Shown here one piece after another: positions 48,978 to 51,452 of a stretch of 64,000 nt of DNA. Origin of the DNA: a virus. The notes beneath the pieces are model-generated. The model was not told the origin of the DNA and did not search any database. It saw nothing but the letters and a program-made list of their open reading frames with translations. Numbering within the stretch: the first letter of the stretch is position 1; the number at the start of each line of letters is the position of its first letter. The DNA lies in IMG/VR virus record IMGVR_UViG_3300046727_000675, positions 23,305 to 87,304 of that record; one strand, given 5' to 3'. The translations under genes and the position numbers were made by a program.

Positions 48978-49475
48978 ATGGCGGGAAAGTACGCGAAGTA
49001 CCGGGGGAAGCTCGAGGCGTTCGCGCAGGAGCCCGACTTCCAGAAGAAGGTCGACGCCGAGAAGAGGAAGCACGCGAAACGCGACGCGAACGCGCTCGGC
49101 AAGGAGTTCGTCCGGCGCAAGCGCGCGAAGAACTCGCTCAAGCGCAAGGACAGGCAGCTGAACGTCGAGCTCGAGGCGCTATCGCAGCTGCTCGTCGACC
49201 GGCTCGAGGGCGCCGAGATCGAGAGCGTGAAGTTCCGCGGTGGGGTCGGCGTCGGCCTGCAGGACAAGCCGTACCCGTCGGTCGCCGACCGCCGGAAGCT
49301 GTTTGGCTGGATCAAGCAGACGCGCATGACCGGCCTCCTGTCGGTGCACCACCAGACGCTCCTGGGCCTTGTCACCGAGGCGCTCGAGGCCGGAAGGCCT
49401 CTCCCGCCGGGAGTCGACGTGTTCCTGAAGACGAGCGCGAAGGTCACGGGGCTGAAGGACGGGGACGATGACTGA
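48978..49475 (+). CDS. Phage replication-module protein
   Basis: Strong RBS; coiled coil plus QTL...E.G..LPPGV.VF motif, as seen next to phage SSB-like genes. Confidence 0.65.
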   Translation: MAGKYAKYRGKLEAFAQEPDFQKKVDAEKRKHAKRDANALGKEFVRRKRAKNSLKRKDRQLNVELEALSQLLVDRLEGAEIESVKFRGGVGVGLQDKPYPSVADRRKLFGWIKQTRMTGLLSVHHQTLLGLVTEALEAGRPLPPGVDVFLKTSAKVTGLKDGDDD

Positions 49476-49646
49476 TTTGCTCGGCTTCCTGTTGGAGGTC
49501 TCTTCAGGTTGCCGCTGGGGAAAACCCGCTCCGTAAAAAGAGCGACTGAGAACACTTTGCCAAGGTCGCGAGCACGCAGGAGAGGGAACTTAAGAACAGG
49601 GCGCCGGCACGCGCCCACTCCAGACAGGGAGCCGAGCAAATCGGTC
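49470..49646 (+). ncRNA. Candidate structured RNA of about 177 nt with a 28-bp closing stem
   Basis: 49470-49497 pairs with 49618-49646. The only deviations are two G-U pairs and one bulged base. Several internal hairpins. Confidence 0.6.
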
Positions 49647-49712
49647 AAAAATTTTAATCCGGCCCGGGGCGGGCCGCAACCCAGCACCGCACGTGAGAGG
49701 GAGGGACAAGCA

Positions 49713-50039
49713 GTGAAGAAGAAACCAGCGAAGAAGAAGAAAAGCAAAAAGCCGGCCAAGCGAAGTAAAAACAAGACAGGGTTCTCGCGACCGTCACGAT
49801 CGGGCCCCGCGCCGAAGAAAGAGTCGAGGCCTGTGAAAGACCCCGACAATAATCTTCCTCCGCCCGACAACAACCTGCCGGAACCTGGAAGCGAACCGAT
49901 AGCGAAGCAGGACCCGGTCCCGGCCGAGGGCGACGCGCCGCTCGAGGAGGAGGTCTCGAACGACGACCTCGCCGGAGACGGCGAAGCAAATAACGACGCG
50001 CCCGACGAGGGCCCGGACGACGACAAGAACAACGACTAA
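49713..50039 (+). CDS. Disordered protein with Lys-rich N-terminus and Asp/Glu-rich C-terminus
   Basis: RBS GGGAGGG before GTG; KKKPAKKKKSKK... to ...DEGPDDDKNND. Confidence 0.65.
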   Translation: MKKKPAKKKKSKKPAKRSKNKTGFSRPSRSGPAPKKESRPVKDPDNNLPPPDNNLPEPGSEPIAKQDPVPAEGDAPLEEEVSNDDLAGDGEANNDAPDEGPDDDKNND

Positions 50040-50101
50040 CCGACATCCACCCCCAACCCGTCCGCCGCACGTGGACAAACACAAAAGGAGATCGAACAGC
50101 C

Positions 50102-50998
50102 ATGGCGAAAGAAACGAAGAAGGAAACACCGAAGGACAGGAAGCAGGAGGAGCGCGAGCGGGCGCTCGCGCCGCCCCCGCAGGGCCAGGCGCTCGCGCGG
50201 CAGGCGGCCGCCCCGCCGGCGCGCGCGGCGCGGACGGCGGTCGAGCCCGTCGAGGGCTTCGAGAACATGGAGGCCGCGGACCTGGCGAAGCCCAGGCTCG
50301 CGCTCTGCCAGTCGATGACGCCGCAGCGCAAGAAAACCGACGCGAAGTACATCCAGGGCCTCGAGGAGGGGGACTTCTTCAACACGATCACGGGCGAGCG
50401 GTTCGGCCCCGAGGTCACGGTCGTCCCGCTGCTCTTCTACAAGAGCCGGATCCTCTTCCGCGACATCGACGAGGGCGGCGGCATGCTCTGCCAGTCGCAG
50501 GACGCCGTCACCGGCGTCGGCGAGCCGGGCGGCGAGTGCGCGTCGTGCCCGATGGCGCAGTTCGGGGAGAAGGGCGAGGCCCCGCAGTGCACCAACTTCT
50601 TCAACTACCCGGCGCTCGTCGTGCCGGCGAAGGGGCCGGTCGGACCCGAGCACCTCGTGGTGCTGAGCCTGAAGTCGACGGGGCTCAAGGCCGCGAAGGA
50701 CTGGAACTCAAAGATGCGCCTGCGCATGGACAAGCAGACGCGCCGGACGCTCCCGATGTTCCGCGGCCTCTACCGGCTGTCGGCGGTCGAGCAGAAGAAC
50801 TCGGCCGGGCAGCAGTGGCACGGCGTCCGCGTGGAGAACGCGGGCGAGGTGTCCGCCGAGAACGCGGCGATCGCGCGCGACGCGTACGAGTCGGTGCGCG
50901 ACCTGTACCGCAGCGGGCGGCTGCAGGTCGACACGGCGGGGCTCCAGGAGCGCGAGCCCGGCGCCGACGACGCGCCGGCCGGCACGGGTGGAATGTAG
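50102..50998 (+). CDS. Putative ssDNA-binding/annealing protein
   Basis: DL..PRL.L.QS.TPQ...YI.G...GDFFN.ITGE, Cys cluster and acidic tail; in the replication module. Confidence 0.6.
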   Translation: MAKETKKETPKDRKQEERERALAPPPQGQALARQAAAPPARAARTAVEPVEGFENMEAADLAKPRLALCQSMTPQRKKTDAKYIQGLEEGDFFNTITGERFGPEVTVVPLLFYKSRILFRDIDEGGGMLCQSQDAVTGVGEPGGECASCPMAQFGEKGEAPQCTNFFNYPALVVPAKGPVGPEHLVVLSLKSTGLKAAKDWNSKMRLRMDKQTRRTLPMFRGLYRLSAVEQKNSAGQQWHGVRVENAGEVSAENAAIARDAYESVRDLYRSGRLQVDTAGLQEREPGADDAPAGTGGM

Positions 50999-51004
50999 AA
51001 CTGG

Positions 51005-51149
51005 CGAGGCGCGATGAGCTTTTCATCACGCCTCGAATCTCGAGGTCGAACGGCGGAACTTCTGGGAACCGCCGGGCGGAAGCCGCGGGCGAGAAAAAAG
51101 AAGCCCGCGGCGAGGGGACGGGGCCTGCTGAGAGAACCAGCGGGCCCCG
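51005..51149 (+). ncRNA. Four-hairpin structured intergenic element
   Basis: Stems at 51005-51035, 51051-51074, 51082-51111 and 51119-51149. Confidence 0.45.
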
Positions 51150-51175
51150 CGCTCCGGAAAGAAGGAGGAACGACG

Positions 51176-51361
51176 ATGACGAGCGACGAGATCCTGAGGC
51201 AGAAGGGCGAGGAGGAGAAGCGGCTCGCGGCGGCCTCGACGGCCGACGCGCAGGCGCAGGTGCGGCAGAACCTCTACCAGCTCGAGGTCGCCTACCAGCT
51301 CGCGGTCGCGAACGAGCGCGCGGCGAAGGACAGGCCGCTGCGGAAGACGCCCGGTGCGTGA
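51176..51361 (+). CDS. Small helical protein (paralogue of 51844-51996)
   Basis: RBS AAGGAGG; MTSDEI...LEVAYQLA. Confidence 0.65.
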   Translation: MTSDEILRQKGEEEKRLAAASTADAQAQVRQNLYQLEVAYQLAVANERAAKDRPLRKTPGA

Positions 51362-51452
51362 CGCGGAGAAGGCGGATGGGCGGCCGAACCGTCCGCTGGT
51401 CGTACTGGCCGTAATTTTGTTCCTGATCGTTTGTCTGCTGTACGGGTTCTGA
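51354..51452 (+). CDS. 32-aa single-TM peptide (not in ORF track)
   Basis: MRDAEKADGRPNRPLVVLAVILFLIVCLLYGF fills the gap between neighbours. Confidence 0.5.
   Translation: MRDAEKADGRPNRPLVVLAVILFLIVCLLYGF

Follow-up and report, generated by a model that had tools for sequence, protein, structure and literature searches.

The window analysed here is a stretch of 64,000 nt, corresponding to bases 23305-87304 of a virus record of 87,304 nt in IMG/VR (IMGVR_UViG_3300046727_000675), with a GC content of about 68%. Two genes on the + strand, whose products resemble gp33 and gp34 of Pam3, lie 626 nt apart in this window, and the first part of the gap is occupied by the element that is the subject of this report, a long inverted repeat with a non-coding interior. 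The upstream gene (48978-49475, +) specifies a DUF7307 protein of 165 aa (PF23984, E 6.3e-13) and shows a GC content at third codon positions (GC3) of 0.93. The downstream gene (50102-50998, +) codes for a gp34-like protein of 298 aa (PF23977, E 5.1e-42) with conserved Cys residues and a weak likeness to the oligonucleotide/oligosaccharide-binding fold (OB-fold). Between the two genes follow the stem element, a spacer of 65 nt, a small open reading frame (ORF) and a leader of 62 nt. With its beginning on the gp33-like stop codon and its end 66 nt ahead of the following start codon, the element is intercistronic. All genes around it that could be called by third-position GC are on the + strand. 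From 49476 to 49712, GC3 is about 0.6 and the codon-position GC signal is lost, compared to 0.93 in the gp33-like gene; the stem region is non-coding.

A long closing stem had been predicted at 49470-49646 from the sequence alone. The arm and interior sequences quoted in this original prediction were confirmed, and the stem itself was recovered in RNAfold predictions. Its outer helix is formed by 49469-49492 with 49624-49647, 24 gapless pairs with a mean pair probability of 0.98, and is continued past a bulged G (G49623) by an inner helix of five pairs (49493-49497 with 49618-49622, probability 0.95). The left arm (49469-49497, +) consists of 24 nt followed by 5 nt, with pair probabilities of 0.95-0.98, and the right arm (49618-49647, +) contains the bulge. 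In total, the helix comprises about 29 bp, 24+5 pairs with a single interruption, and encloses 120 nt. The left arm covers the TGA of the gp33-like gene, as had also been predicted, together with the last sense codon and one base of the preceding codon.

Applying strict Watson-Crick rules, the arms agree at 22 of the 24 positions of the outer helix. Each of the two remaining positions forms a G.U pair on the + strand and an A.C mismatch on the - strand, which is in accordance with the claim that both substitutions give G-U pairs on the + strand. If G.U pairs are allowed, all 24 positions pair on the + strand, compared to a best value of 22 anywhere on the - strand. Folding of a 201-nt stretch yielded -94.6 kcal/mol versus -64.4 +/- 4.2 kcal/mol in 200 dinucleotide shuffles (z -7.17), none of which was as stable. 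In a fold scan of the 87-kb genome, for which about 2,180 segments of 200 nt with a step of 40 nt were regressed on GC, the stem was the strongest outlier on the + strand with a residual z of -4.5; the runner-up reached -3.4. Shuffling controls on the whole genome gave a similar picture. With strict Watson-Crick pairing, 22 of 24 positions were reached in none of 40 shuffles and 21 in three of them. With G.U pairs allowed, 24 of 24 were reached in one of 341 shuffled genomes, a control that leaves out the five-pair extension. The inverted repeat is very probably real and beyond chance.

The interior (49498-49617, +) is a non-coding segment of 120 nt without a codon-position GC signal. Folded alone, it reached -42.1 kcal/mol versus -39.0 +/- 3.7 kcal/mol in shuffled versions (z -0.84), and 39 of 200 shuffles were as stable; for the reverse strand z was +0.38. 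The internal hairpins listed in the original prediction do exist. One of them, GGGCGC/GCGCCC (49599-49604 with 49611-49616), forms with a probability of 1.0, and GCGACU/GGUCGC (49542-49547 with 49564-49569) is a second robust helix with a probability of 0.90. The other hairpins of the prediction, GGG/CCC (0.52), CGCTC/GAGCG (0.25) and TCTCTTC/GGAGAGG (0.22), are weaker and compete with alternative pairings, and the interior structure as such is not beyond chance. Its loops are A-rich. An antisense target of the interior was searched among the translation-start regions of the phage, but none stood out, 14 of 60 shuffles being equally good. Since the interior folds like shuffled sequence, the evidence for structure sits in the closing helix; the fold signal resides entirely there and not in a complex interior fold. 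This is a useful negative result, because it was the interior that gave the element the appearance of a complex non-coding RNA (ncRNA).

The RNA fold of the + strand is 12.7 kcal/mol more stable than that of the - strand (-94.6 versus -81.9 kcal/mol). As single-stranded DNA, the repeat folds on both strands, with z values of -5.95 and -4.11. Because G.U pairs are found only on the + strand, the + strand fold is more stable, and the called genes are all on that strand, an RNA helix in the sense transcript is favoured over a repeat acting at the DNA level. The preference for RNA expressed in the original prediction is supported with regard to the strand, although two G.U pairs are weak evidence and the DNA folds too.

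The element does not belong to a recognizable RNA class, as had been anticipated. The search against Rfam proposed earlier was performed, and Rfam 15 at gathering thresholds yielded no match in the whole window. At E values of up to 10, only an irrelevant hit to BcKCsr7 (E 8.6), located inside the gp33-like coding sequence, was obtained for 49300-49800. ARAGORN detected neither a tRNA nor a transfer-messenger RNA in the sequence. The phage genome had no match to TROVE/Ro, RNase III or reverse-transcriptase families and none to resolvase or phage-integrase (tyrosine recombinase) families, while control genomes matched in both cases. A Y RNA/Ro system is not supported, there being neither a TROVE gene nor any match resembling Y RNA or tRNA. 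An inverton is not supported either, as the phage has no invertase-type recombinase and no joint or strand change is on record in four runs, contigs only being a weak test of orientation. The element is an uncatalogued single instance of a familiar feature, a long intercistronic stem.

The element is present as a single copy in the phage genome, and no homologue was detected in the sets searched. Cultured phages and plasmids gave no blastn match, and the element was not matched by blastn or nhmmer in 25 IMG/VR loci with a gp34-like protein. The pattern TTGCTCGGC-N-GCCGAGCAA was found in 34 IMG/VR loci, all of them chance hits with a resemblance to the element of at most 14-22 nt, and the block GTCCRCCGCACGTGGAC in four IMG/VR loci, which were unrelated. 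When one genome per species was searched for a 19-nt arm pattern in 185,579 species (GTDB representatives), 11 single-arm matches were obtained, which corresponds to chance level; they came from unrelated taxa and none extended beyond 19-24 nt. Only short matches of 21-48 nt were detected in 802 genomes of Actinomycetota and Pseudomonadota. A short match that was inspected (G040, two places; locus L088) is located within a coding gene, as judged by reading the sequence, and corresponds to no Rfam family. The covariance model R1, which was built from one sequence and is limited in its reach, scored 238.7 bits against itself and detected nothing in 26 related viral records or in a set of 33 loci. 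Scans of IMG/VR with single proteins, the gp33-like, gp34-like and PolA proteins, revealed no close relative of the phage, and relatives from alignment-based scans showed at most 51% identity.

The DNA sequencing runs carrying the window are soil and rhizosphere metagenomes. Where contigs of four other soil runs cover the window, they match it exactly, and no microdiversity was apparent. In three of these four runs, the contigs break off at 49458-49485 and restart at 49528-49543; no significance is attached to this gap, which a contig of one run, X5, bridges.

The organization of the gp33-like and gp34-like genes in relatives is informative for the origin of the region. The 25 IMG/VR loci with a gp34-like gene include 22 with a gp33-like gene upstream; L007, L023 and L028, in which no gp33-like gene was detectable, were left out. 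In 18 of the 22 relatives the two genes overlap or lie directly next to each other, at a spacing of -53 to +42 nt (L011 was counted as overlapping from its coordinates). The remaining four carry inserts at the junction, which are mutually unrelated and lineage-specific. The insert of L005 (2817-3000) is about 180 nt long, non-coding and rich in hairpins, that of L010 (2443-2940) is about 500 nt long with small Cys-rich ORFs, that of L026 (1527-2997) comprises 1,471 nt, and that of L027 (2717-2901) comprises 185 nt with a small basic ORF. These data suggest that the junction is a hotspot for insertions between otherwise coupled genes, and in the window the element is part of such a lineage-specific insert.

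The spacer following the stem (49648-49712, +) contains an A5T4 tract, a GC hairpin, a CCGCACGTG motif and, for the small ORF, a ribosome-binding site rich in purines. The spacer hairpin, CGGCCCG-GGG-CGGGCCG (49660-49676), consists of 7 bp, all GC, without a U tail and was not called a terminator. The small ORF (49713-50039, +) codes for 108 aa, which are Lys-rich in the N-terminal half and acidic in the C-terminal half, has a GC3 of 0.65-0.77, and is equipped with its own strong ribosome-binding site and a GTG start codon. Its product had no matches among 1.84 billion representative proteins or in a word-indexed search. The longest ORF here, 50071-51414 (447 aa), lies in the wrong frame and owes its existence to the high GC content; third-position GC gives 50102-50998 instead. 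Several further long, overlapping ORFs of the window are artefacts of the same kind.

The only close relative among the matches listed in the metagenome scan is L063 (1,554 nt), whose gp34-like protein is 61% identical; a protein that is also 61% identical, P0002, is encoded on a contig of 4,409 nt from the Joint Genome Institute (JGI). L063 ends 203 nt upstream of its gp34-like gene, short of where the stem would lie. It contains an open frame with an acidic tail, ending at the place equivalent to the small ORF, and a near-identical block of 17 nt, GTCC(A/G)CCGCACGTGGAC, ahead of the gp34-like start codon. The correspondence of the small ORF to this frame is one of position and composition only, BLASTP being not significant. 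Because the acidic-tail frame and the 17-nt block are found in equivalent places, at least the ORF part of the insert is older than the split from L063.

The window contains just two exact copies of the 9-mer CCGCACGTG, one at 49687-49695, 17 nt ahead of the small ORF's start codon, and the other at 50065-50073, 28 nt ahead of the gp34-like start codon. The latter copy is located within a 6-bp hairpin, GTCCGC-CGCAC-GTGGAC, which is kept in L063 (about 161-177) as GTCCAC-CGCAC-GTGGAC, the difference being an A-U to G.U change. CCGCACGTG may represent a promoter, an operator or a leader hairpin. A k-mer search for a shared promoter motif in crudely defined intergenic gaps produced nothing usable. 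Upstream of the window, the stretch G000:C1:1441-1760 has a GC content of 0.35-0.43 and is the second-best fold outlier, on both strands; this low-GC stretch could be an origin-like or regulatory region.

Upstream of the gene pair, an SNF2 helicase, a DUF3310 protein and ThyX are encoded. In Burkholderia phage Bm1, genes for a helicase, a single-stranded DNA-binding protein (SSB), a tRNA and the DNA polymerase surround the gp34-like gene. The AlphaFold model of the gp34-like protein has a predicted local distance difference test (pLDDT) score of 87, and a fold search with it gave weak OB-fold/SSB matches, the best with an E value of 0.033. Three Cys residues, C130, C146 and C163, are invariant in the gp34-like family, which was detected in 139 records of cultured phages (among them Pseudomonas 66, Vibrio 38 and Acinetobacter 10) and is mostly annotated as hypothetical. 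In a literature search, DUF7307, PF23984, PF23977 and Pam3_Gp34 were not mentioned and nothing relevant on Pam3 gp33 or gp34 was retrieved.

The reading we lean towards, with a little less than even confidence, is that the element is an intercistronic stalk of double-stranded RNA (dsRNA) in a polycistronic + strand transcript, which is probably cut by host RNase III and sets the processing or stability of the flanking mRNAs. With 24+5 pairs, a single bulge and pair probabilities of at least 0.95, the helix has the length expected of an RNase III site (about two turns, at least 20 bp of dsRNA), and recognition by the enzyme appears plausible. Two publications describe RNase III cleavage, one of the large stems that bracket 16S and 23S rRNA (PMC6582327), the other of several sites in transcripts of lambda, T7 and T3 (PMC5371410). 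Like the stalks in these systems, the helix is longer than two turns and formed by the flanks of an enclosed segment in what would be a polycistronic transcript; like the phage sites, it lies between cistrons, and in the element it is the helix and not the interior that carries the signal. It differs in that cleavage is only predicted and that the enclosed segment of 120 nt is not a known functional RNA. An interior no more structured than its shuffles is consistent with a stalk in which the helix itself is the functional part. A device handling the new junction is also plausible, since genes that most relatives couple directly, the stop codon of one overlapping the start codon of the other, lie 626 nt apart here.

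We infer that the element is transcribed, that RNase III cleaves it, and that expression of the neighbouring genes is affected. Cleavage of the stalk helix by the host enzyme would separate the upstream mRNA of the replication module from that of the small ORF and the gp34-like gene, so that their decay would be uncoupled, and would free the interior of 120-150 nt as a by-product. If left uncut, the helix could instead act as a barrier to 3' exonucleases. By either route, the relative stability and translation of the flanking cistrons would be set. Ribosomes terminating at the TGA within the left arm would briefly melt the outer helix, and formation of the stalk could therefore hinge on translation of the gp33-like gene. 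A role in cis is at least as likely as one in trans. Intercistronic stem-loops of the REP (repetitive extragenic palindromic) type and of the puf-operon type are barriers to mRNA decay in bacterial operons. The element shares with them a stable structure right after a stop codon in an operon, which could block 3' exonucleases and split the half-lives of the cistrons. These stabilisers are short local hairpins, however, and often repeated in the genome, whereas the element is a long-range helix present once.

Several observations weigh against the stalk. None of the 13 sequencing runs listed for the window is on record as RNA. The two G.U pairs are a weak indication of strand, as we estimate a chance of about 0.1-0.25 that neutral transitions produce such a pattern, and the repeat folds well as single-stranded DNA on either strand. 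The phage genome contains no RNase III gene of its own. RNase III sites of the T7 type are compact local hairpins of about 50-60 nt with internal loops and not, as in the element, arms 120 nt apart. No homologue that could reveal covariation was detected in the searched sets. Finally, a 24/24 repeat with G.U pairs arose in one of 341 shuffled genomes, and across a scan of this extent chance repeats with a core of that length are bound to arise. The five-pair extension and the intergenic position lower this last risk without removing it.

Among the alternatives, an inverted repeat at the DNA level without RNA function deserves most attention; we regard it as possible but rather unlikely. It could be a scar of the event by which the 626-nt insert arrived, either a relic of terminal repeats as in miniature inverted-repeat transposable elements (MITEs) or insertion sequences (IS), or a quasi-palindrome that arose through template switching. 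Alternatively, replication or recombination might make use of it as a hairpin or cruciform, for example as a single-strand initiation site next to the replication genes. The size of the element is MITE-like, with arms of 24-29 bp around about 120 bp, and the arms end in 5'-TG...CA-3'. The ends of IS3-type elements are TG/CA. In addition, the element is located at the edge of a lineage-specific insert of lower GC (0.57-0.60 locally versus 0.68 in the genome), at a junction that carries other inserts in 4 of 22 relatives. Its ability to fold as single-stranded DNA on both strands and its unstructured interior are in line with this explanation, as is the location in a replication module, where an SNF2 helicase and ThyX are encoded along with a gp34-like protein whose OB-fold/SSB-like matches are weak.

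Dispersed copies with target duplications had been named beforehand as the finding that would identify a MITE. The element is a single copy in the genome, no real copy was found in plasmids, cultured phages, the 185,579 species genomes or the 802 genomes, and no target-site duplication is present; the flanks read ...GACGA/TGACTG... and ...GGTCA/AAAAT..., with ACGA on one side and AAAA on the other. As no copy was found in IMG/VR, cultured phages, plasmids or GTDB representative genomes, there is no evidence for a MITE. The phage lacks a transposase, resolvase or integrase, both mismatches favour the transcribed strand, and the cumulative GC skew shows no turn at the element.

That the stem closes a stable ncRNA of about 150-177 nt is unlikely. 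Such an RNA would be cut out of the operon's transcript, owe its protection to the terminal helix, and act in trans as a decoy, a protein sponge or a regulator. Paired 5' and 3' ends with a long helix around a multi-branch interior are an architecture of stable RNAs, among them 6S RNA, Y RNA and RNase P RNA, and the strand-specific G.U pairs, the A-rich loops and the two internal helices of high probability would suit it. On the other hand, the interior folds no better than shuffles, no Rfam family was hit even at E values of up to 10, and no hit to the covariance model, which scored 238.7 bits on its own sequence as a control, was obtained in the 26 records of related phages. The phage has no partner gene (TROVE, reverse transcriptase) and the interior no outstanding antisense target. 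A promoter of its own would have no room outside the gp33-like coding sequence, and no terminator directly follows the stem. The intricately folded 6S-like or decoy RNA of the original prediction is not upheld by these results, given an interior that resembles random sequence, no 6S or Y RNA at E values of up to 10, and neither TROVE, reverse transcriptase nor an antisense target.

In a variant of this idea, which we consider still more doubtful, the insert would be a two-part cassette. The stalk would be the handle of a new phage ncRNA, a stable molecule of about 150 nt that host RNase III would release where the transcript of the replication module has its 3' end. Acquisition of this RNA would have gone hand in hand with that of the orphan basic/acidic disordered protein, and its target in trans would be a host factor, for instance if it served as a decoy for an RNA-binding protein of defence or decay.

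Chance alone, an inverted repeat without any function, is improbable. It is suggested by the one shuffled genome in 341 with 24 of 24 pairs when G.U is counted, by the very many windows of the scan, and by the unremarkable interior. However, five further pairs past the single bulge were not part of that control, strict Watson-Crick pairing at 22 of 24 positions occurred in none of 40 shuffles, and the repeat coincides exactly with one of the rare gaps that are genuinely non-coding, directly adjoining a stop codon.

Recoding, in which the stem would promote read-through of the gp33-like TGA and a C-terminal extension through the element into the small ORF, is very improbable: the gp33 frame is open for 188 codons past the TGA, to 50039, with the small ORF in the same frame (a configuration with a chance of roughly 0.03-0.08 by a rough estimate), but GC3 is about 0.6 across 49476-49712 versus 0.93 in the gp33-like gene, the stretch contains the codons AGA, AGG, TTA and AAT, judged rare for a genome of 68% GC, the small ORF comes with a strong ribosome-binding site and a GTG start of its own, the gp33-like genes of the 22 relatives stop at an equivalent position, and a helix of 29 bp that begins on the stop codon does not resemble the familiar bacterial selenocysteine insertion sequence (SECIS) or read-through contexts, so that the open frame is probably due to chance.

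If the stalk is indeed an RNase III or stability element, it would be ordinary punctuation of phage mRNA, and its main value would be that of an example of an inserted cassette fitted between genes that are normally translationally coupled. The finding would carry more weight if the excised interior turned out to be a functional RNA that is stable, or if the stem travelled together with the orphan disordered protein. That would amount to a new accessory cassette of RNA and protein in soil phages whose DNA is modified.

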